This document shows, in pieces, positions 2,911 through 36,610 of a DNA stretch of 64,000 bases; positions within the stretch are counted from its first letter, which is position 1, and every line of letters starts with the position of its first letter. A program made the position numbers and the translations under genes. The DNA comes from Candidatus Thorarchaeota archaeon (lineage in GTDB: Archaea; Asgardarchaeota; Thorarchaeia; Thorarchaeales; Thorarchaeaceae): the NCBI GenBank assembly GCA_046482545.1, contig JAWOEX010000035.1, forward strand, positions 1 through 64,000, read 5' to 3'. Under the pieces are notes generated by a model. It was given only the letters and a program-made list of their open reading frames with translations. It did not search any database and was not told the DNA's origin.

Positions 2911-5900
2911 ATGGCTCGCCTAACTTCGCCCCGCAACCCGAACAAGGTCCTCATTACGGCCTTCAAGCGAGGGATGGCATCCACACTGGCCCTTGCCAGA
3001 GACAGAGCTACGGGCGAAGCAAGATCACTCTACTATGGCGAGGGGGAACGCATCAAGGGTATGGCGAGAATCTGGGAAGAAGCTACTGCAGATTACAGTA
3101 GAGCCATCGAGGAGGGTGAGCGTGCGTACAATGAAGCCCTTGTAGAAGCAAAACGAGCCCACAGGGAGACTGCAGGGCAGGAAGGGCATGCTACGGCAGT
3201 TGAAGCAGCTGAAGAACGGCTACGAAAAATCCTGGCGAACAAACCTCGGCCGGATGTCAGGCATCTGCTTGAAGCCGAGAACAACATCAGGCGCAACTAC
3301 TACAAGATTATGCTCAAGACCTCGGTGAAGTACGGCAACACGGAGACCAAACGAATCAGGAAGGGAGAGGGGAATCAGGGGTACCTGAACCTCCTGTGGG
3401 ATTATGTTGGAAGTAGGATTCGTAATATATGCAAGGTGCGCTATCCATTTCCGCGGGCGACCAAGCTGGTTCTTGAGGATGGCAGGGAAGAAACTGGTTA
3501 TCCTGCGCTTGGGGGGCATCCCGCCTATCCACTGATCCACAGCGGTCTTCCCGAGCTTGATTTTGGGGACATGATGCGCAGCCACCTCATCGAGCTTGGT
3601 AGACAGTGTCTGAAGTATCACGTTTCCCTCAAGAAGGCCAAGCGGTATGTTGACGAACTGGTTCACAGACTCGTGCCATTCCTTGACTACGTTTTCACCA
3701 ATGGACGGACGGGGCGGCCAAACTTCATCAAGGAAGGAACAGCGGAACTGCGAACTGTCGTTGACAGAATAAGTGTCAGATTCGGGATGAGAAACGGGCG
3801 ACCGCCTTCCATCACTGCCAGCATCGCAGAGGAAGTGAAGAAAGAAAGGGAGTTTGTGTCGGAGGACTATCGTCATGATCCATCGGAGGCCCGAGTCCAT
3901 CCTGAGGAGTTTGATGTTGATGCGAACGGGTTTCTGGAAGAGCAGGACATTGCTTTTGATGATAAGGTAAAGGAAGCTGATGTAAAACGGCTCCTCCACA
4001 CACTGCAGAGACGTGCAGAACGTGAAGGAATTGCTACCGATAGCGAGTCTTTTGGGGAATTTGAACGCTTGTTGAAAGAGGGACTTCTGGGAATCGACGA
4101 TGCCGAAGAGATTCTGAGCAGAGCTGCGGAAGAAAGCAGGCGAGTGGGTTCATCATTTCACAGATTCGTATCTCACGCATTCCCTAGCCCGTTCAAGTTC
4201 ACTTCTGTTGTCTATCATGGGGATGAGATGATATATGACAAGTCAGGGATGCTACTGACATCCGAACTGAGCATAGCCAATGGAAGGGGGCGTGCTGATC
4301 TTGTTCTCTTCAGAAGAAAGACGCTGCATCGTGCAGATGATGCGCGATCTCAAACCATCTACGAACCATGCATGGTTGTTGACCTTAAAACCAAGAGCGC
4401 CTATGACCTCGGCATCTGTGGGGTTGAATCTGAATCAGAAGAGAAGGAGAATGTAGTCAGTGAATTTCTCTTGAACCGCCGGTTGATGATTGATGATGAG
4501 TGGTCCGCGGTTTTGAAGGCAATGCCAGACAAGCATGTCAAAAAGCAAGTTGATGCCTATGCCAAGGGCATTCTTGCCGAGTATGAGCAGGTTGCACAAA
4601 CTGACCTACGACGACCTAGTGAAATTATCAAGGCTGTAGTGGTAGTTGATTCCAAAGAGAATTGGGAGAGAGTTCGGGATGCCTTACTGCCGCTCATTCT
4701 TGATGCATGCAAGAGGTCCGTGGAGGGTGAATTAGAAGAAGAGGATATTCTTCAACCCCGTGAGAACGATGCGTATCTAAGAATGGCAATGCTCATTCTA
4801 TCTGAGCAGTGTCAGACTACCGATATCAATCCAGTAGACTGGATAAGAAGATTGGATCCCTTTAGATATAGGATAGATGATGGAAAGCAGTTCATTCTAT
4901 ATCTGTCAGTCTCCGGCAGAGCAACACCACTAGAATCTGCAGCAGCAGTAGCAGCGAAATTTCACGGACTCAAGTATCTGTATGAGTTGGCGTACTACAA
5001 GCATAGAGATATCGTCTGGGTCGACTTGGATGGAGAATATGCAGATTCGGTGCTAAGAGAACATCGACTGAAACTAAGGTATCACAACGACTCTGTGAAG
5101 CGTTTCTTCAGAAAGCGAGTAGAAATGGTAGACTTGTCATCAACAGTGATGAAAATAGTGTATAGAGGCGGCACGATTCAAGATCTGCAGCAAAAATGTA
5201 GGGATGTAATCAGTAACAAGAGGCGCCCTATTATTGTCGTGAGCGGATGGGATTCACTCTGGTCTGCTACGCCTTATTCTTCCCAGGGATTGCTTGATAA
5301 CTTGGTTTTCTCTGTTATATCAGAAGTTCCAGAAGAGAGCATCATACTCTGGTTCGGAAGCCCAGTTCCATTGTCACAAAGCAGTCCGCTCTATGAAACA
5401 AGATGTGTTGCACCATTCTATGAAAAGACGCACTGGCAGCACTTTGTTGATAGAATCGTGTGGAACTTGCCGTTGCCCCCGTATAGAACAGGTGCTACTG
5501 CCCCTGCAGATGACCACATCAGAGTTCTAGTGGTAGAAAGAGACAATGGCAACCAACCTGAAACCGAGCTTGTACGTATCGAGCCCCTAAAAGGATGGGG
5601 AGAGGCATTCAGGTCAGGAGGGGGGCAATATTGGGACATTCAATTGTATCAGAAAGGGCATCCGTCATCTGTTACTTCTGTCAGCAAATACTCTGAAGAA
5701 GATATCACAGAAGCGATGAATTTGTTGCCCCATCTCAGCTTTCAGCCACCAGAAGTTTGGAGCTGTCCAATTGCGGACTTGGAAATCGATAGTATGGAAG
5801 AGACAGGGGATCCGGTCAACCCAGCCCGCTTGCCGGATCGAATTAGATTTTCTCCGCGAGAATATACAGATCGACTCCACTCTGATGGCCGGATTAAACG

Positions 5901-8802
5901 GTTGTTACCGATTCAGGATATCAAACGGAAACGAGAGTATCGGGAGACCAGCTTAGGGGTTAAGGAACCAGACCGAGTCACAAGGCCACCTCCCGAAGGG
6001 CTGCTGTCATATAAGACCATTGAGGGGCAAAGAATAGATCCAATGGAAATAAGGGCACTGCGAGATACGATACGCTTTCTTCGAAGTAGATATCCTGGTT
6101 CCAGTTCGTTTTCAAATATGCTTGGTACAATCGAGAAGATACTAAAGACTGGCAATGGAATTTCCTCCATCAATCAACTCAGAATGGTACGTAGAGTACT
6201 TGAAGATGATAAGCTATGTAGCAAGGCATGGAAACGACTGAAATCCATTCGATTGGGTTCGTTCCACTCACTTACTTATTTCCAGCGAGAGCATGTCAAA
6301 CAACTCGTTTCACAATATCCAGATTTGATGTTAATCACGGGCAATCATCTTTTTCTCCTGATTCTTGCAGCGGTGCATGATAGAGTCGGAGATTTGTACA
6401 GAAGAACTTGGGAGCTCCTATGGGATTATGTTTTCCCTTGGCATCTTACAGGATTGGGAATGTGTCCCACTTACCCTGACGATAATCCGTATGGGCGGTC
6501 TGTACTGGATAGAAGGACTGTATTGAGAAGGCTCAGGTCTAGGGCCATTGCCATCAATAGGCTGTTGGATAATGAGGAGAGTCCTAGAAAAATACGGATG
6601 GGGCATCTAATCATACAACCAATTTCAGGGCAACGTATGCCACTTTGGTTGATCTTTCAACATGCAACAGGTAGCCGCGAAATGAATGCTGCTTTGCTCA
6701 CACCTGTGAGAATAGATCCTACAACAAATCCGCAGAAAGTGCTTACAAGCTTGGCATCGGGAGACACGCATTGGAGTGAAAGCAAAATTGATAGACTATC
6801 TCAATTTGCTAGACCAGGAGAGGGGGACACAGCAACTCCAATCATGGTGGCTGAGTATCGTGAGTCAGACGTGCTATGGATTCTGAATCAGAAAGAGACC
6901 TCTTGGTTGCCAGTTGGATACATTCAGTATACTACTCGCAAAATCGAGGATGTAACTCTTGTTAGAACGATAACACTACGGTCGGGATATAATCTTGAGC
7001 CCATTCCCTTGGAAAGAGTAGCTGAACAGACCTCGAAGGTGGAGAGCATTGTTGCGATAGCGAGGCTGATAGTAAACAAGGCGTTCCTAGAATGCAGAAA
7101 TGTCACGTGTCATGTTTCATTAGACCGCGAAAACGGGAAATATCATCTAGGATTCTCTGATTCACGAGCTGATGTACAAGATGATGAGTTAGGGACACTA
7201 TCTGCCAAAAGAACATCAGATGTAATTGAACTGCTTAGAAGGCCGGATGCTGATTGTGAACCAGTAGTCATCAATGGGGAGAAATTGATTTGGAGTAGGT
7301 TCACGGGTATTGTCTATCATGGTGATGCAAGGATAATCAGGCCGTGGGTGGAACGCAAATCTCCCCTAAAGGGGAGTTCATTTGAACTGCCAGATTCAGC
7401 TGAGCAGATAATACATACAAAGCGAGTAGAAGTTAATCTAGAGGTGTATCACGATGCTGATGTCTGTCCACTTGCAGGCCTATCAAAGAAGCAGATTAAC
7501 GATTTCTTGATTGATATCGAGGAGAATCCAAATCAATATGCAGCTTGGGCTGATGAGATGATTGGGCAGCCAGATGTATTCCTAAGCGAATCGGTTCACC
7601 GACATGGAATCTGTTGGGGAGTCACAATAAGAAGCAATGAGGATTTGCCAGTCATATTCGATTCGCTTCATTTCACCAGATTGGGTGGGCCTGAATTGGG
7701 AACCCTCATCAAGACGGGGATGCTTGCGCACAAGACAGATTCTACATGGGTTATTTACGAGTTCGTAGTTCCAGAAGTTAGTAGTTTGCCAACAGAAATC
7801 AAAGAAAGTATTTTTCTCTTGAATGCATACAGAGACACCGTTCCGAAAATCATGGAGACTATTCAGGTTCCAAGAACCTACAGGCTCCCGCGTGAGGAAA
7901 TGTGGAAAGTCCACCTCTCTTGGCGAGAAGATGAAATCAATTGGGGGGCAACATCACAAGAAACAGATACATCATACAGCAACACATCCTTCACGATTCG
8001 GTTGTATCCGAAGAAGAGCCTTGGTGTAATGTTGAATGAAATCCTAGGACAAATCACATCCAATATTCCCCGAAAGAATATCCTAGGGTTTAATGATCTT
8101 AGAAAAGACATCATCTCTAGGCTATCGAAGAGAGGATACGAACCCGAGAATCATTTCGAAATTTATCTTCGAAAATGTGATGAGGGTTTTGAATATTCCA
8201 TTGAGAAAGTCCCGAAAAGCTGGCCAAGCAGAACCCGATGGTATACCTTCGTCATAGAAGAAGAATGGGAATTAGAGGAGATACAAGATTCACTCATGCG
8301 GGAACTGGAAGGACATGGAGCCTCTGATTACGAAATTGTCAACCAATCTGATTTTATTGAGAATCTCCGGAGGATACTTGAAGGACTCCAGGGTCACAGC
8401 AAACAAGAATCAACTGATACAATTCAGGCAAAAGCAGTCGGCCCAATGACTCTTGCTATGAAGTACACCAATATGCGTAATAGAGCAAGGACGTTCATTC
8501 AAGATGGGAAGCATGATGAAGCACTAGAAACGATTGACAATATTGTTATGCTACTTGATGGAGCAAAAAGTCATACTGAAATTATGAGAGGTTATTTGTT
8601 AGATATTTTCATTTTGAAAGCGGAGATTCTCGTGAATAGAGTTGAAGAGGCCAAGCCCAGCCCCGGTAGGATATTGTCAATTCTTGATAGGATTCATGAA
8701 GTAGCAATGGAGATGCCAGGACGACTTCAGAGTGCAAGAAGTGAACTGGGAAAGCGTTTGAGATGGGCATTGGCAATTCGAGATAGGCTGATGGAAAAAT
8801 AG
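2911..8802 (+). CDS. Giant uncharacterised protein (1963 aa) with a PD-(D/E)XK/RecB-like nuclease motif and a degenerate P-loop-NTPase-like region
   Basis: Long uninterrupted ORF. Motifs SEL...GRADLV...VVDLKTK...KQVDAY, then IVWVDLDGEY and PIIVVSGWDSL without an intact Walker A. C-terminus is helical and TPR-like. Confidence 0.85.
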   Translation: MARLTSPRNPNKVLITAFKRGMASTLALARDRATGEARSLYYGEGERIKGMARIWEEATADYSRAIEEGERAYNEALVEAKRAHRETAGQEGHATAVEAAEERLRKILANKPRPDVRHLLEAENNIRRNYYKIMLKTSVKYGNTETKRIRKGEGNQGYLNLLWDYVGSRIRNICKVRYPFPRATKLVLEDGREETGYPALGGHPAYPLIHSGLPELDFGDMMRSHLIELGRQCLKYHVSLKKAKRYVDELVHRLVPFLDYVFTNGRTGRPNFIKEGTAELRTVVDRISVRFGMRNGRPPSITASIAEEVKKEREFVSEDYRHDPSEARVHPEEFDVDANGFLEEQDIAFDDKVKEADVKRLLHTLQRRAEREGIATDSESFGEFERLLKEGLLGIDDAEEILSRAAEESRRVGSSFHRFVSHAFPSPFKFTSVVYHGDEMIYDKSGMLLTSELSIANGRGRADLVLFRRKTLHRADDARSQTIYEPCMVVDLKTKSAYDLGICGVESESEEKENVVSEFLLNRRLMIDDEWSAVLKAMPDKHVKKQVDAYAKGILAEYEQVAQTDLRRPSEIIKAVVVVDSKENWERVRDALLPLILDACKRSVEGELEEEDILQPRENDAYLRMAMLILSEQCQTTDINPVDWIRRLDPFRYRIDDGKQFILYLSVSGRATPLESAAAVAAKFHGLKYLYELAYYKHRDIVWVDLDGEYADSVLREHRLKLRYHNDSVKRFFRKRVEMVDLSSTVMKIVYRGGTIQDLQQKCRDVISNKRRPIIVVSGWDSLWSATPYSSQGLLDNLVFSVISEVPEESIILWFGSPVPLSQSSPLYETRCVAPFYEKTHWQHFVDRIVWNLPLPPYRTGATAPADDHIRVLVVERDNGNQPETELVRIEPLKGWGEAFRSGGGQYWDIQLYQKGHPSSVTSVSKYSEEDITEAMNLLPHLSFQPPEVWSCPIADLEIDSMEETGDPVNPARLPDRIRFSPREYTDRLHSDGRIKRLLPIQDIKRKREYRETSLGVKEPDRVTRPPPEGLLSYKTIEGQRIDPMEIRALRDTIRFLRSRYPGSSSFSNMLGTIEKILKTGNGISSINQLRMVRRVLEDDKLCSKAWKRLKSIRLGSFHSLTYFQREHVKQLVSQYPDLMLITGNHLFLLILAAVHDRVGDLYRRTWELLWDYVFPWHLTGLGMCPTYPDDNPYGRSVLDRRTVLRRLRSRAIAINRLLDNEESPRKIRMGHLIIQPISGQRMPLWLIFQHATGSREMNAALLTPVRIDPTTNPQKVLTSLASGDTHWSESKIDRLSQFARPGEGDTATPIMVAEYRESDVLWILNQKETSWLPVGYIQYTTRKIEDVTLVRTITLRSGYNLEPIPLERVAEQTSKVESIVAIARLIVNKAFLECRNVTCHVSLDRENGKYHLGFSDSRADVQDDELGTLSAKRTSDVIELLRRPDADCEPVVINGEKLIWSRFTGIVYHGDARIIRPWVERKSPLKGSSFELPDSAEQIIHTKRVEVNLEVYHDADVCPLAGLSKKQINDFLIDIEENPNQYAAWADEMIGQPDVFLSESVHRHGICWGVTIRSNEDLPVIFDSLHFTRLGGPELGTLIKTGMLAHKTDSTWVIYEFVVPEVSSLPTEIKESIFLLNAYRDTVPKIMETIQVPRTYRLPREEMWKVHLSWREDEINWGATSQETDTSYSNTSFTIRLYPKKSLGVMLNEILGQITSNIPRKNILGFNDLRKDIISRLSKRGYEPENHFEIYLRKCDEGFEYSIEKVPKSWPSRTRWYTFVIEEEWELEEIQDSLMRELEGHGASDYEIVNQSDFIENLRRILEGLQGHSKQESTDTIQAKAVGPMTLAMKYTNMRNRARTFIQDGKHDEALETIDNIVMLLDGAKSHTEIMRGYLLDIFILKAEILVNRVEEAKPSPGRILSILDRIHEVAMEMPGRLQSARSELGKRLRWALAIRDRLMEK

Positions 8803-8949
8803 CACGAATTGATAGTAGATAACCAGCTATACTGCTTTTGTCCGGCATCATTGGAGCCCAGCTCTTCTTCCGGTCGTAGCATCCTTCTGCTGTTGTTGTA
8901 TACTAAGGGTGCCACACCTTGGGCCGTCACGGTACTAAGCCAAGAATGC

Positions 8950-8972
8950 AGGAAAAAGAAGGTCTATAAGGT
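8950..8972 (+). promoter_or_regulatory. BRE/TATA promoter of ncRNA copy 1
   Basis: Purine run GAAAAAGAAGG followed by TCTATAAG about 21 nt before the stem start; conserved in copy 2. Confidence 0.6.
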
Positions 8973-8990
8973 TTCTTAACTATAATAAAT

Positions 8991-9220
8991 TGGCCGCCTG
9001 AGTAAGGCACCAACGACTGACAAGCTAAGTCGGTTCATGTTGGGTTTGATTCCCAATCCGGTCAAAAGGGGATTAAGCATGAAAAACGGCATGGATGGCT
9101 GATCGACACATAGCGTGACTGAGTGACAATCGTCAATTCGGTAGACGGTTGTCACAGCGATGTTATGCAAAATGTGAGGTAAAAGCCGATAGTTGGTTGA
9201 GGTCTAAGCTCAGGCGGCTA
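8991..9220 (+). ncRNA. Unrecognised ~230-nt structured ncRNA, copy 1
   Basis: 13-bp terminal stem (8991-9003 with 9208-9220) and several internal helices whose pairing is kept in copy 2. Flanked by a promoter and a pyrimidine tract. Confidence 0.75.
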
Positions 9221-9591
9221 TCTTCTCTTCCGGCTGATGTCATTCCCTTCATGTTAACGTTCATATTTTTGAAAAATAGAAATTCGTGCACTAGTTTCCT
9301 GCCAGTTTTAAGCAGCTAGAAAGGATGCACCATATGGTGTGTCAGATACGTCAGGATAATTGAGAACGCTTTGGATGCCTGCATCGAACTACCTCAGATT
9401 TGACGGGAATATGACCAAATCTCCTTGTGAACGTCCAACTCAATCGCCCCCAATCTACTCGGGTTAGCTGCTATCAATAACAAACCGTCACTGAAGATTA
9501 CCGGCTGACTGGAGGAATTATGTCGGAGTTCTATTTGAGGAATACTTTATCTTTGCAGCCGCACAAAATACGGTAAAGGTGATAGTGAAAC

Positions 9592-9864
9592 ATGGCTTAT
9601 GCAGGTAGCGCAGCAGGTGCTGGTGCAGCAGCAGCAAATCGTAGCAGCTCATATCGAGTGAAATTTGAAAGAAAGGAGTTTCTTCAGCTAGTAGCCCGTG
9701 CCGAGCCTGAGCGAATATATCAGACTGGGCGGATGCATTTCTTTGCATTTGATGGGTTCGTGATGTACACCTTCGAATGTGAGGACGATGACTTCAGACA
9801 GAGGGTATTTCATGCCGAGGAATTTTCAAATAGGCCGTGGGCAGAAAGAGGGGGGATATGGTAA
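9592..9864 (+). CDS. Small hypothetical protein
   Basis: 90-aa ORF with protein-like composition and a GGTGA RBS-like site upstream. Confidence 0.6.
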   Translation: MAYAGSAAGAGAAAANRSSSYRVKFERKEFLQLVARAEPERIYQTGRMHFFAFDGFVMYTFECEDDDFRQRVFHAEEFSNRPWAERGGIW

Positions 9865-10015
9865 TATCAGTCTATTCAGTGAAACTATTCAAGTTGTGAA
9901 CTCGCCCCTTTAGGAAGGTGTGTTCTTTTCGGCGGCATAATCACAAGAGTGTGGGCAGTCCTGAAACCGGGTATTATATTCTAATCGGCTCTATTTCACC
10001 ACAGGTGGGCATCCA

Positions 10016-10519
10016 ATGACTAGCGGAGATGAGAAATTACCCATTGATGAGGAGAGTCTGACCGAAGCTGATCTATTCGAAGCTATCTCCCACGAGACCA
10101 GAATACATGCCTTGTTTGCCTTGGAAGAAGGTCCTGTTGGTTTTGCAGATTTTAAGAGGGAATTAGGCATTTCCAGTAGTGGGAATTTACAACATCACAT
10201 TAGGAAGCTCGGAGAGCTCATTCATACTAATGCGGCAGGTGAGTACAAGCTTACAGAGCAAGGTAAAGAGGCGCTGATTGCAATAAGTATGATTCGAAAC
10301 ATGGAAAGGCACATGAAGTCCACAATTGGTGTGGTTACGATTATCGGGGCTTTTGCATACTATGTTGTACAAATGAATCTGCCATTTATCATGGGAACGG
10401 TCAACCCGATGACGCCAGTATTCGCGCTTTTAAGCACAGGAATCTTTGGAGTTATATTCTATGGGTTGTGGACAATAGTCTCCAAAGTGACATCCAAGAA
10501 GGGATTCGCAAATTCATAG
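10016..10519 (+). CDS. ArsR-type winged-helix regulator with two C-terminal TM helices
   Basis: LFEAISHETRIHAL...ELGISSSGNLQHHIRKL...YKLTEQG followed by two hydrophobic segments. Confidence 0.8.
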   Translation: MTSGDEKLPIDEESLTEADLFEAISHETRIHALFALEEGPVGFADFKRELGISSSGNLQHHIRKLGELIHTNAAGEYKLTEQGKEALIAISMIRNMERHMKSTIGVVTIIGAFAYYVVQMNLPFIMGTVNPMTPVFALLSTGIFGVIFYGLWTIVSKVTSKKGFANS

Positions 10520-10559
10520 TTCAGGCCACTTAATAAAAATAGTAATGGGACAAAATGCA

Positions 10560-10582
10560 GAAAAAAGAAAGTCTATAAGGTT
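10560..10582 (+). promoter_or_regulatory. BRE/TATA promoter of ncRNA copy 2
   Basis: GAAAAAAGAAAGTCTATAAGG, near-identical to the copy 1 promoter. Confidence 0.6.
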
Positions 10583-10600
10583 TCTTAACAATAGTACACT

Positions 10601-10829
10601 TAGTCGCCTGGGTAAGGCGCCACCGACTAACAAGCTAAGTCGATTCATGTTGGGCTTGATGCCAAATCCGATCAAAAAGGGATCAAGCAGAAAGACGGCA
10701 TGGATGGCTGATCGGCACATAGCGTGACCAAGTGATGGTCGTCAAATCGGTAGATGTTCATCACAACGAGGTCATGCCTATAGTGAGATGAACGCCGATA
10801 GTTAGTTGAGGTCTAAACTCAGGCGGCTA
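10601..10829 (+). ncRNA. Unrecognised ~230-nt structured ncRNA, copy 2
   Basis: Diverged direct repeat of 8991-9220; terminal stem TAGTCGCCTGGGT/ACTCAGGCGGCTA; followed by TTTTGTTTT. Confidence 0.75.
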
Positions 10830-10838
10830 TTTTGTTTT
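10830..10838 (+). terminator. Oligo-T terminator of ncRNA copy 2
   Basis: TTTTGTTTT directly after the closing stem. Confidence 0.5.
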
Positions 10839-11004
10839 CACCTCTTTACCAGGTTTCATCACTGCGATGGTAGGAGATTCTATTTTTCGAAACTAATCAT
10901 TATCCAGCCCTTGGAGGGATGTATCAAATTCATCAGGTCCTTATCGCATCATTTAATTGTGTAATTATGATAGTATTACATTGAAGGAGAACTGAATCAA
11001 CATT

Positions 11005-18452: not shown

Positions 18453-20614
18453 TTGCTAACCTCCAACCACTGGCCTGCTTCTTCTTTGTGAACAGGTGTA
18501 GGTCCCAGTTCTACAGCTCTTCCCACCATTTCTCCTACGGCTTCAGTAAACCGATTTGGTTCAGCACTGAACATTCTAAACATTTCAACCCGTTCAGGAT
18601 GCCAACCTATTGCTGCTAGAATCTCTTTAGCCACATCAACTTGGAGTTGGGCAATCTCGTTCGCTGTACCACCCATATGGCATCTATCGGTTTCACAAGC
18701 CGCAATCATTACTGTACTTGCACCATACTCCAGCGCCTTAAACAGGTCGATAATAGAAATTCGGCCTGCACAGGGAACAGATACAAGACGAGTCTGGGGA
18801 GAGTATTCCATCCTGTTAGTTCCAACAATATCTATCGTCGATACGGCGCATTCCTCACAGTGAAAACATAGCGTAAGTTCATTGTCTGGTCCTGCATCTC
18901 TCAGAATCTCTTCTATCTGTGACCATAATTGTTGGTTACTCAGAAAATTTAGTTGAGTAGCTTCAGAGGGGCAAAGACTCTGACAGACGCCGCATGCATG
19001 GCAATTCAATGTATCAATAGCAGCTTTAAACAGAATCTTCTCACCCTCCGCATCCACCTCGGCCTCCTCTGGATCCTGTTCAATCATCAGTGGTACACCG
19101 CGAGGGCACTCTTGAGCACACAAACTACAGCCGATACACTCATCAACATCAAGAACTGCACCACGCGACAGTTTCTCTATATGACCACCTCTGAGCTCAT
19201 TGTGAATAACCTTCGAGGCTGCTTGAGCATCGGTTATTGTCTCGAAAACAAAATGGGGCCCTGTTACACCTCCTACGGCTACGACGCCTCTTCTATGAGT
19301 CTCAGTTTTACGTAGTTTGTCATATAACTCTTTGATATATCCATTATCCTCAACATCGTAACTGAGAGTCTCGGAGAATTTTTCTAAATCCTCAGAAGGA
19401 AGAATAGCTGATGATAACACAATCAAATCAGGGTTCAATTGGAAATACTTGTCGAGTAGTGAATCGTATATTCTCATATGGGTAGTACCTTCTTCTTCCC
19501 AGACCATGCTTACTCGGCCACGAATGTAATCTACACCATTTTCTCGTGATTCCTTGTATATCATCTCATGTTCGAAAGGCACGCGTATATCCATGTATAC
19601 GATGTGCACTTTGATGTCCGGGGATGCTTTCAGAAGCTGGAGAGCATTATCGATTGCGAATGTACAACAAAGCTTGCTGCAATCAGGCCTATAGTTTTCA
19701 TCTCTGCTACCAACACATTGAACCATTACTACTTCTTTGACTTTGCCACCATCCGATAGTCGTTGGAGCTCGCCTTCAGATAACATACAGGACAACTCAT
19801 ATTGTGTGATGACATCTGGGTTTTTTCCATATCTATATTCATCCATCATTGAAGGCTTGAACTCTCGAAATCCTGTGGCAAGAACAATAGCTGATGTCTT
19901 GATCGAGTTTTCTTCTCCATCAGTAGTATAGCTGACCTCAAAATTGCCTATTTCACCTTCAAAGAAGAGAACGCGGGTGTTGGTCATAATTTCTATTTGA
20001 TCATGCTTCTTGATATCTTGGAGACGGCCCGCTATGACTTCTTGCCCGGATTTTTGTGTCGGCGCTACCACGGGAAGGTTTCTAACGTGTCCACCTAGTT
20101 TCTCCTCTATCTCGATAATCGTTATGTCGTATCCTAGATTAGCCAGACTCAGAGCAGATTCTATACCTGCAATACCACCACCAATTACAGTGATATGAGT
20201 GGATACATCCTTTGTTTCATTATCCAATGGTGTAGATAGAGCGGCTAATGATGCACCTCCACGAATCATATCAATAGATTTCTTGGTCGCTTCATCGCAA
20301 TCAGAATGGACCCATGCAGAATGTTCGCGTATATTTACGTAGGTTATCAGTGATGGGTCCTTGCCTTCCGAACGAAGGTAATTATCTATATGGGGCTTTA
20401 GTTTTTGATTTGTACAAGCTGCAATTACCAATCGCTTATCAGCGGTATCCAGCAGTTCGTCTATAGTACTCAAACCATCTTCTTGGCAAAGGGAATCATG
20501 AATTGCAACGGATGAAACAACATCAGACTGCTCTACTTCGCTGACCATTTTTTCGTAATCTAAATCAAGCTGTTTGCCACAGGTACAGAGAACAACGTTC
20601 ACTTCATTAGTCAT
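18449..20614 (-). CDS. hdrA: Heterodisulfide reductase subunit A fused to MvhD
   Basis: N-terminal Cys cluster with NIREHSAWVH, VIGGGIAG, QCVGSRD...CSKLCC, two ferredoxin motifs, and a C-terminal MvhD domain (VPCAGRI, ACETDRCH). Confidence 0.9.
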   Translation of the reverse strand: MTNEVNVVLCTCGKQLDLDYEKMVSEVEQSDVVSSVAIHDSLCQEDGLSTIDELLDTADKRLVIAACTNQKLKPHIDNYLRSEGKDPSLITYVNIREHSAWVHSDCDEATKKSIDMIRGGASLAALSTPLDNETKDVSTHITVIGGGIAGIESALSLANLGYDITIIEIEEKLGGHVRNLPVVAPTQKSGQEVIAGRLQDIKKHDQIEIMTNTRVLFFEGEIGNFEVSYTTDGEENSIKTSAIVLATGFREFKPSMMDEYRYGKNPDVITQYELSCMLSEGELQRLSDGGKVKEVVMVQCVGSRDENYRPDCSKLCCTFAIDNALQLLKASPDIKVHIVYMDIRVPFEHEMIYKESRENGVDYIRGRVSMVWEEEGTTHMRIYDSLLDKYFQLNPDLIVLSSAILPSEDLEKFSETLSYDVEDNGYIKELYDKLRKTETHRRGVVAVGGVTGPHFVFETITDAQAASKVIHNELRGGHIEKLSRGAVLDVDECIGCSLCAQECPRGVPLMIEQDPEEAEVDAEGEKILFKAAIDTLNCHACGVCQSLCPSEATQLNFLSNQQLWSQIEEILRDAGPDNELTLCFHCEECAVSTIDIVGTNRMEYSPQTRLVSVPCAGRISIIDLFKALEYGASTVMIAACETDRCHMGGTANEIAQLQVDVAKEILAAIGWHPERVEMFRMFSAEPNRFTEAVGEMVGRAVELGPTPVHKEEAGQWLEVSK

Positions 20615-20621
20615 TGTTTGT

Positions 20622-21896
20622 TCACATCCTCTCTTGGAGTATTTTACTTGCTACAGCTCGCGCTTGGGTAACACTTTCAGGTACTTCCGCAGGCCCAATT
20701 GCACCCCCACAAGCATATACATGGTCACCAGCCAGGACCTCAGTATCAAGAAGATTAGCTGGGCTTACGTAGCCGCTAGCCGATTTAAGACCTAAATCCT
20801 CAATCATTTTGCTCATACCATTAGAGGGTTCTAGTGCAGACGAGAGTACGAGCAAGTCTACATTTGTTTTGAAATACGTGTCCAGAAGGGAATCGTATAA
20901 GGTGATGTCAAGTGTGTCATCTTCAAGAGGCCTGACTTCAGCCACTCTTCCGCGCGTGAACTCTACACCCGCTTCTCTCGCCTCACGGTAATAACGCTCA
21001 TGCTTGTCATAAGTTCGGATATCCATATAGACTACAGAGACATCCGTTCCATTTCTCTCTCGTCGTATGATATTTGCATGTTTTAGAGCAAATACACAAC
21101 AAATCTTGGAACAGAATGGATGATAGTTCTCATCTCTGCTCCCTACGCACTGCACCATGAGCAGTCTTTTGACTTGGGCACCATCAGAGGGGCGAACCAC
21201 TGCTCCATGAGAGGGGCCATTCGGATCTAAGATTTTGGCCAATTCGAGCTGAGTGATGACATTGGTATAATGACCATATCCATATTCATCAACCTCGTTT
21301 GGTTTCATCTCTTGATAGCCTGTTGCGATGACAATATCAGATACGGTAAGTGTGCTCACTGTTGGTTCAGCTTTCAAATCAATGGCTCCTGTTGGACACT
21401 CCTCTTCGGCTTTGAGGCTGCCTTCGTCCTGCTTTTCAGGATCGAAGACAACTGACTGAGGCTGACATTGAGGAGATAGGAGCGAAAACGCCTCCGAAAG
21501 TTCCATGCATGCTCCACACATGGTGCATTTCGCTGGATTCACATATTGTGCACCCTGCTTGAAGCGAATCTCAAATAATCCTGGTTCGCCACCGATTTCT
21601 TCTATTTCTGTATTAACTCGTAGGTCGATGTTTGGTTGATCTAGTAACGCGCTACGATAGAAGCATTTTCTTATTCCTGGTCGCGACCGATTGCTTTCAA
21701 AACAATAGAAACAATCGTCGGTTGGAAATGCTTTGTAAAGATTTAACGCGTTGCCACCTACACTAGTCTCCCGGTCAACGAGTATAGTTTCAACGCCGGA
21801 ATCAGCTAGCTCGACAGCTACAGTCAGACCTGCAACACCAGCCCCTATTACCAACACCGGTTTAGACATCTCAGATTTCACCCTATTTGGAGACAT
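20622..21896 (-). CDS. hdrA: Short HdrA-like flavoprotein (alternative start 21869)
   Basis: VIGAGVAG, KAFPTDDC, QCVGSRD...CSKICC. Confidence 0.9.
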   Translation of the reverse strand: MSPNRVKSEMSKPVLVIGAGVAGLTVAVELADSGVETILVDRETSVGGNALNLYKAFPTDDCFYCFESNRSRPGIRKCFYRSALLDQPNIDLRVNTEIEEIGGEPGLFEIRFKQGAQYVNPAKCTMCGACMELSEAFSLLSPQCQPQSVVFDPEKQDEGSLKAEEECPTGAIDLKAEPTVSTLTVSDIVIATGYQEMKPNEVDEYGYGHYTNVITQLELAKILDPNGPSHGAVVRPSDGAQVKRLLMVQCVGSRDENYHPFCSKICCVFALKHANIIRRERNGTDVSVVYMDIRTYDKHERYYREAREAGVEFTRGRVAEVRPLEDDTLDITLYDSLLDTYFKTNVDLLVLSSALEPSNGMSKMIEDLGLKSASGYVSPANLLDTEVLAGDHVYACGGAIGPAEVPESVTQARAVASKILQERM

Positions 21897-23545: not shown

Positions 23546-23977
23546 CACAGCAGGACTAGGGCGGTGGGCCACTCCTCAAAGGGAGAAGAGCTCAGCCCCG
23601 AAGGCTGTGAGGAAGACCCCGTCTTCTAGCAGAAGTCCTCACTCTCCAAACAAAGAGCTCCATCAAGTCCTGGAGAATCCGCGGCTGTTCACCATGTCCG
23701 TAATGGACCTTCTCAGTTATGGCTACAAGGCTGAGGTGAGTGATCATGACCACGCCGTGGTAAGGACTGTGGAAGACCTCGCTGTCGCCGGGAGTGATGA
23801 CCCGGGATGACGACAGGAGATGGAAACCAGAACCGCGGGAAGAATCCCATTCCGATGAACGTGGATAAAGCCCCTGCTGACTCAAGGGCCTATGGGTACC
23901 TTGGGGGCGGCGACGCTGGCAGGGGAAGGGTGGAATACAGAAGTTTCATGCAGTGTACGCAACTGTAAGAAACAGGT
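23546..23977 (+). ncRNA. Orphan omega-RNA-like locus (tnpB 3' remnant lacking the nuclease)
   Basis: Collinear with the 874-1300 tail both as nucleotide motifs and as translation (AGLGRW vs TGLERW; AVVRTVE in both). Ends in GAAACAGGT; TATA-like TTTTATTA at ~23520. Confidence 0.65.
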
Positions 23978-36319: not shown

Positions 36320-36440
36320 TGCGGAGGGCGAGATTTGAACTCGCGGACTCCTACGAGATTATCCTCAGTTGAGGGAATTTGTACCTCAGCCAATTTGGAT
36401 CCTAAGTCCAACGCCTTTGGCCTGGCTTGGCAACCTCCGC
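36320..36440 (-). tRNA. tRNA-Leu(TAG) with a 36-nt intron at 43/44
   Basis: GCGGAGG/CCTCCGC acceptor, TTGGA-CTTAGGA-TCCAA anticodon arm; BHB ATCC-AAA...GGAT-AAT. Confidence 0.9.
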
Positions 36441-36523: not shown

Positions 36524-36610
36524 ACCTTCGTGGCGGTGTCGCCGGCAGAGGAAGGGTGGAGCACAGAAGTTTCCTCAGCTGGGTTCACTCAATTGCAAGA
36601 AACAGGTTAT
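36524..36610 (+). repeat. 87-bp tnpB right-end/omega-RNA 3' fragment; inverted copy of 35724-35810
   Basis: 86 of 87 positions identical to the reverse complement of 35724-35810. Confidence 0.9.

Follow-up and report, generated by a model that had tools for sequence, protein, structure and literature searches.

The window analysed here is a 64,000-nucleotide stretch of a Thorarchaeota contig. Self-comparison of the window revealed a repeat pair, 8945–9230 and 10554–10839, with 84% identity across 287 nt, and an nhmmer search of the 3.05-Mb genome returned these two copies and no third. The diverged direct repeats described in a first-pass annotation of this DNA (8991–9220 and 10601–10829) lie within the pair. 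The features of the locus are as follows.

8945–8987, + strand: promoter block of copy 1, with a purine-rich BRE-like run; 91% identity to the block of copy 2
8963–8971, + strand: TATA-like box of copy 1, at an equal offset in 46 of 51 homologous loci
8991–9220, + strand: ncRNA copy 1; 13-bp terminal stem formed by 8991–9003 with 9208–9220
9004–9013, + strand: 5′ strand of the handle loop of copy 1 (partner 9199–9208), a degenerate bulge-helix-bulge remnant
9029–9105, + strand: arm A of copy 1, with a stem, an asymmetric A-rich loop (9079–9086) and a hairpin
9059–9064 with 9100–9105, + strand: predicted pseudoknot 1 of copy 1, involving the arm A hairpin loop
9107–9191, + strand: arm B of copy 1, a hairpin with loop 9138–9142
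9138–9142 with 9185–9189, + strand: predicted pseudoknot 2 of copy 1, involving the arm B loop
9221–9230, + strand: pyrimidine tract of copy 1, probable terminator
9592–9864, + strand: intervening 90-aa ORF of no family, outside the RNA system and not found beside other homologues
10016–10519, + strand: intervening gene for a 167-aa ArsR-like winged-helix protein (DUF7347), outside the RNA system
10554–10596, + strand: promoter block of copy 2, with a TATA-like box at 10572–10580
10601–10829, + strand: ncRNA copy 2; terminal stem formed by 10601–10613 with 10817–10829; degenerate handle
10668–10674 with 10709–10715, + strand: predicted pseudoknot 1 of copy 2
10746–10751 with 10794–10799, + strand: predicted pseudoknot 2 of copy 2
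10830–10845, + strand: pyrimidine tract of copy 2, probable terminator

Immediately upstream of copy 1 is a 1963-aa ORF (2911–8802, + strand) that has no Pfam or PADLOC match and contains a nuclease-like D...D-x-K stretch at residues ~455–485; no similarity was found between it and the partner protein family described below. Elsewhere in the window, a 121-nt tRNA match (36320–36440, − strand), which Rfam finds and ARAGORN misses, probably contains an intron. A 50-nt segment beside it (36524–36573) recurs at 23898–23947, and a separate 101-nt direct repeat occupies 19656–19756 and 21088–21188 (71% identity).

The two elements are almost certainly real RNA genes. Their fold z-scores are −8.1 (copy 1) and −6.4 (copy 2), and none of 200 shuffled sequences was equally stable. 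All of the helices listed in the first-pass annotation, namely the terminal stems (13 of 13 bp), a second stem, an invariant 9-bp stem and two hairpins, pair where it placed them, and the pairing between a hairpin loop and a downstream segment is present in both copies. Its observation that pairing survives substitution was also borne out: 12 altered pairs still pair between the copies, two of them through changes on both sides, and the four pairs scored as broken are column-register slips of the pair list. Contigs from four salt-lake metatranscriptome runs, at low depth, touch parts of both copies; they show neither a discrete transcript nor a junction read and speak neither for nor against a discrete or circular RNA. 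The promoter block and pyrimidine tract common to the two copies recur at homologous loci, where a TATA-like hexamer is located at −36 to −23 in 46 of 51 cases (2 in the control window) and the 12 nt 3′ of the terminal stem are 83% pyrimidine, compared with 55% in the control. Genes downstream of the homologues differ in identity and strand. The fixed-distance TATA-like box, the pyrimidine tract following the stem and the varying downstream genes indicate a stand-alone gene rather than a leader, and the two window copies are paralogous stand-alone ncRNA genes whose promoter was duplicated along with the RNA.

No known RNA family accounts for these genes. Rfam searches of the window and of the relatives of both RNA classes described below gave no match for these RNAs at the gathering threshold (best E-value for the window copies, 2.9). 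The first-pass annotation had noted no SRP, RNase P, tRNA or riboswitch signature. No archaeal SRP model matched, and the canonical SRP RNA is encoded elsewhere in the genome, as is the RNase P RNA, whose model RF00373 likewise gave no match. The best match to the raiA motif RNA (RF03072, E 1.3, scored without circular permutation) lies elsewhere. A riboswitch or cis-leader is inconsistent with the downstream genes and with a pyrimidine tract following the stem. A resemblance of the terminal stem to that of Y RNA was set aside: the stem has no bulged C, and no recurring neighbor was recognized as Ro60, as judged without a profile.

Among 86 genomes of the Thorarchaeota family, a covariance model identified homologues in 44, a number that rose to 48 when the model was refined, with one or two copies each. 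The RNA also occurs in Thermoproteota and, within the Asgard archaea, in three genomes of a second family. A further model, R3, misses the window copies, consistent with their degenerate handle. In an alignment of 52 sequences with a mean pairwise identity of 60%, pairing held in 86% of the cells and 61 of 73 pairs changed two-sidedly; the covariation score of 0.44, in a type of test that kinship among the sequences inflates, exceeded every shuffled control (0.26) and every slid control (about 0.10). The top-scoring covarying pair of the whole alignment falls in the loop pairing recognized in the first-pass annotation (pseudoknot 1), and five core pairs of arm A are 98–100% kept, with AU/UA/GC swaps. 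A second loop pairing, symmetric to the first, had been overlooked: pseudoknot 2 is paired in 84% of cells, and all six of its pairs show two-sided changes. A candidate third pairing, between the 5′ linker and the segment after arm B, is paired in 72%. Beyond its terminal stem, the RNA has a handle loop that is conserved and two arms that resemble each other. In each arm, a stem is combined with an asymmetric A-rich loop and with a hairpin, the loop of which pairs with a segment immediately 3′ of that arm. As read from the alignment, the RNA has two pseudo-symmetric arms, each with one loop pairing. The geometry suggests that the A-rich loop may be a hinge for the fold-back of the arm. Bathyarchaeia have versions sharing the handle with one arm (~150 nt), two arms (~245 nt) or a rod (~175 nt), which identifies the arm as a module. 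One Bathyarchaeia genome (G210) has a rod-type and a two-arm copy (L161 and L163), neither of which adjoins the gene described below.

Thus, the earlier proposal of a stand-alone undescribed class is supported by the absence of an Rfam match, the covariation, the conserved promoter and terminator, the one or two copies per genome and the absence of a target-site duplication, and was incomplete in that the two-arm layout with its second loop pairing, the predicted splicing into circles and the tie to a partner gene were missing from it. The RNAs raiA, OLE and ROOL are large structured RNAs whose function is not known. The RNA described here is like them in standing alone, in having several helices and pseudoknots and in measuring a few hundred nucleotides, and differs in being archaeal, in matching no Rfam family and in its modular one-arm, two-arm and rod forms.

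A gene for a protein of ~220–240 aa recurs beside the RNA, at 20 of the first 52 loci, lying either 5′ of it on the same strand or in divergent or convergent orientation. Among the 86 Thorarchaeota family genomes, which are related and therefore not independent observations, the RNA is present in 48, the gene in 27 and both in 25; the gene lies within 230 nt of the RNA in 21 genomes, in all three orientations. The two gene-only genomes belong to the genus of the window and hold only fragments. In a sample of 151 Thermoproteota genomes, to which the same caution applies, the gene is present in 59 and the RNA of the window type (class A) in 22; all 22 RNA-positive genomes carry the gene, 21 of them within about 330 nt. 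RNA beside the gene was not detected at Nitrosopumilus-like, Methanomassiliicoccales and many Bathyarchaeia loci; few genomes of the lineages with the gene and no adjacent RNA were searched whole for the second RNA class described below. The Nitrosopumilus-like genomes (L061:3698-3820, L196-L205), with no RNA detected beside the gene, have a conserved ~40-aa Cys/His-rich ORF after it. At L211 and L213, a conserved box C/D sRNA-like sequence with no Rfam match at the gathering threshold is located ~60 nt upstream of distant gene homologues.

Sequence searches with the partner protein against Pfam, NCBIfam and the PDB gave no match. The core of its structure model (pLDDT 90) is restriction-endonuclease-like, with the PD-(D/E)xK fold, and E70, D81, E114, E116 and K139 are invariant in 86 partner sequences, with E-x-E in place of E-x-K. 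The modeled core fold and the acidic catalytic motif place the protein in the PD-(D/E)xK superfamily. The model superposes on 3dnx with a Z score of 10.1 and an rmsd of 2.5 over 105 residues. Compared with the PD-(D/E)xK proteins 3dnx, XisH (2okf), AF1548 and NucS/EndoMS, the partner shares the core fold and an acidic D...E-x-E motif and is distinguished by an extra N-terminal helical hairpin. Profile comparison detected no similarity to EndA. The protein tree broadly tracks taxa, and neither the RNA nor the protein was present in the viral contigs searched.

A structured RNA adjoining a nuclease-fold gene is reminiscent of OMEGA-like systems, in which the RNA would guide the nuclease. This is very unlikely, because a hypervariable unpaired spacer is missing from the RNA, each of the two apical loops covaries with an internal partner, both RNA ends are closed and the partner fold is neither RuvC nor HNH. 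We also considered a non-autonomous mobile element (MITE) or a mobile intron moved by the nuclease, since the flanking genes vary by lineage and the duplicated unit is exactly the promoter plus the RNA. However, no genome contains more than two copies, the flanks carry no target-site duplication (dispersed copies with such duplications were named in the first-pass annotation as evidence for a MITE), and the protein tree broadly follows taxonomy. The G-U-rich covariation and the pseudoknots indicate selection on the RNA, as that annotation had surmised from the many G-U pairs. Mobility of this kind is highly improbable and largely refuted.

Archaeal bulge-helix-bulge motifs are cut by the splicing endonuclease EndA, and the excised part is circularized by a ligase (PMC7714728; PMC4731332). 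The handle loop forms a strict motif of this type (two 3-nt bulges, a 4-bp helix and flanking helices) in all 23 gene-adjacent Asgard copies and in 43 of 49 TACK class A copies. The bulge bases are variable, and the four central pairs vary pair-compatibly only. The handle loop was also considered as a kink-turn or a sarcin-ricin motif, and both readings were dropped once the bulge-helix-bulge register proved to use every base. When cleavage was simulated 3′ of the second base in both bulges and the ends were joined, a tetraloop hairpin formed in 76 of 81 gene-linked or TACK copies; shifted cuts gave 25 at most. The junction loops are C(UUAG)G, C(UUCG)G and C(UUUG)G in class A and C(GAAA)G and C(GAGA)G in the second class; these tetraloop types are known to be stable. 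The handle thus has two mutually exclusive pairings that are both conserved, which cutting and joining into a tetraloop hairpin would explain, and the junction tetraloop is the strongest, if indirect, sequence evidence for circles. The family is very probably matured by EndA and RtcB into circles with a predicted size of ~200 nt (inner ~195–205 nt). The window genome encodes EndA (two genes) and RtcB. A search of metagenome contigs, a collection that may hold no RNA assemblies, for junction patterns gave 0 matches and subsequently only chance hexamer repeats. The predicted class A junction resembles two TTAGGC hexamer units, probably by coincidence, and this resemblance swamped the metagenome search with chance matches.

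The gene-adjacent relatives share the 3-4-3 motif of archaeal bulge-helix-bulge introns in tRNA, pre-rRNA and 5′ UTRs (PMC7714728). Unlike those introns, they are not embedded in a host RNA. Only a short stem flanks the part to be excised, which carries the conserved structure and would gain the tetraloop on ligation. The closest precedent is the permuted SRP RNA of Thermoproteus, which is made circular by EndA (PMC4731332). The present family differs from it in having no SRP signature and a PD-(D/E)xK-fold partner, and in that the window copies have no motif.

A sequence-blind bulge-helix-bulge scan beside gene copies without class A RNA uncovered a second RNA, class B. This three-armed RNA of 180–226 nt is unrelated to class A and was found beside the same gene at 12 loci (L127, L142, L160, L187, L189-L192, L194, L203, L204 and L207). 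The motif is strict in 11 of them, and the remaining one has a single mismatch. The central helix shows compensatory changes, a TATA-like box lies upstream in the loci inspected, and none of the class B loci scanned against Rfam gave a match. Individual scan scores overlap the shuffled control, and the evidence for class B is instead that its members occupy the same position, have a promoter, fold strongly and resemble one another. Classes A and B share the splice handle only, which counts against the proposed complex in that they offer the protein no obvious common element beyond the handle to recognize.

The RNA and the protein are likely to be physical partners. Alternatively, the RNA may act alone or with another partner, the protein being a processing, turnover or co-regulated factor or simply an old neighbor. 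The orphan RNAs, including those of the window, keep both arms and both pseudoknots. The window copies sit at a conserved locus: cupin, aldo-keto reductase and acyl-CoA dehydrogenase genes lie in the vicinity, as they do around homologues. The persistence and duplication of the RNA in the 23 family genomes in which the gene was not detected suggest that its function does not strictly depend on the protein. Nevertheless, adjacency is kept in three orientations, two phyla and two unrelated RNA interiors. Simple synteny would not outlast such rearrangements, and we regard an RNA independent of this protein as somewhat unlikely.

If the partnership is real, it might be that of a toxin and its antitoxin. 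Type III toxin-antitoxin systems (ToxIN and its relatives) encode a pseudoknotted RNA beside a nuclease gene. By analogy, the nuclease would be toxic and held inactive by the RNA. The likeness extends to the nested presence of the two genes in Thorarchaeota, where an intact gene is always accompanied by the RNA but not vice versa, and to the pairing expected after ligation, which is intact in 20 of 20 gene-adjacent copies compared with 5 of 12 motif-keeping orphan copies (mostly from one clade). In contrast to type III systems, there is no tandem repeat array, the protein fold is unrelated, the RNA has its own promoter and a predicted circular form, and the gene pair occurs in three orientations. 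Roughly vertical, single-copy inheritance, housekeeping neighbors, a single weak N-terminal match in PADLOC, absence from viral contigs, the many gene copies without nearby RNA and the continued conservation of orphan RNAs also argue against an antitoxin, which we consider unlikely.

The window copies probably represent linear orphans of this family. The partner gene was not found in the window genome, which is 98.9% complete, and neither copy has the strict bulge-helix-bulge motif, while both arms are kept. The nearest relatives (L009 and L010, 68% identity) both carry the motif and lie beside the gene. In a further, distinct group of orphan paralogues, the splice motif is likewise absent. 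The linear-orphan reading follows from the absence of the partner gene together with the loss of the motif while the fold was kept. The cupin, aldo-keto reductase and acyl-CoA dehydrogenase genes lie 3–5 kb downstream of the window copies and resemble, by eye, genes near homologues in other genera, so that the RNA probably stayed at its old locus, lost the partner gene and was duplicated with its promoter. In another genome of the genus of the window (G001, L004:1502-1545), the RNA is reduced to its 3′ end and the partner gene to a fragment without the N-terminal part. These remnants suggest that the genus is losing the system.

Residual circularization of the window copies is conceivable because the genome encodes EndA and RtcB, and Asgard EndA, an (αβ)2 enzyme, is reported to carry an L1 insert tied to broad specificity (PMC5829648). 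A 4-bp helix can still form in a shifted register, and both copies keep the post-ligation pairing, as an ordinary helix that in one copy is preserved through a two-sided change. On the other hand, a clean 3-nt bulge flanked by helices is missing on both sides, and joining would yield the loop U(CUAA)A or U(CUAA)G, which is not of the stable tetraloop type. Cutting through relaxed specificity of EndA is therefore rather doubtful.

We propose, with a probability of roughly 0.6, that the RNA belongs to a circle-forming family with a nuclease-fold partner and that the window copies are linear orphans of it. Sequence comparison shows that the RNA is a gene with the described fold and both pseudoknots, that relatives carry the motif and are genomically linked to the protein, and that the window genome has lost the motif and the protein gene. 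For cleavage, ligation, binding and function, we infer the following pathway. The RNA genes would be transcribed from their own TATA promoters, and in the ancestral form the closed ends would fold into a bulge-helix-bulge. EndA would cut this motif and RtcB would join the inner ~195–205 nt, the junction becoming a stable tetraloop hairpin. Each arm would bend at its A-rich asymmetric loop, allowing the apical loop to reach the segment at the base of the arm. The circle would most likely form a complex with the PD-(D/E)xK-fold protein, as a scaffold or regulator. In the window genome, the loss of the protein gene and of the motif, with the arms kept, would have left linear, end-paired RNAs selected for their fold. 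More broadly, the chances seem evenly balanced that this is an old Asgard/TACK ribonucleoprotein in which a dedicated circular RNA, produced by the enzymes of tRNA splicing, binds and controls a conserved nuclease, with interchangeable interiors (one arm, two arms, a rod or a three-arm junction) and linear orphan descendants that have a function of their own.

The literature searched, which left out most subscription papers, holds no description of the RNA or of the RNA-protein pair. The new elements are the RNA class and its pairing with the protein; the splicing route is already known. Among archaeal RNA circles in the literature found, the purpose-made functional ones amount to one permuted SRP RNA, in addition to intron and pre-rRNA products. 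The predicted cut sites, junction sequence and binding partner are directly testable, and the window copies provide natural loss-of-motif controls. If the proposal is correct, a widespread protein of no assigned role would gain a partner, and a circular RNA family tied to one conserved Asgard/TACK protein would represent a novel type of ribonucleoprotein among the closest archaeal relatives of eukaryotes.
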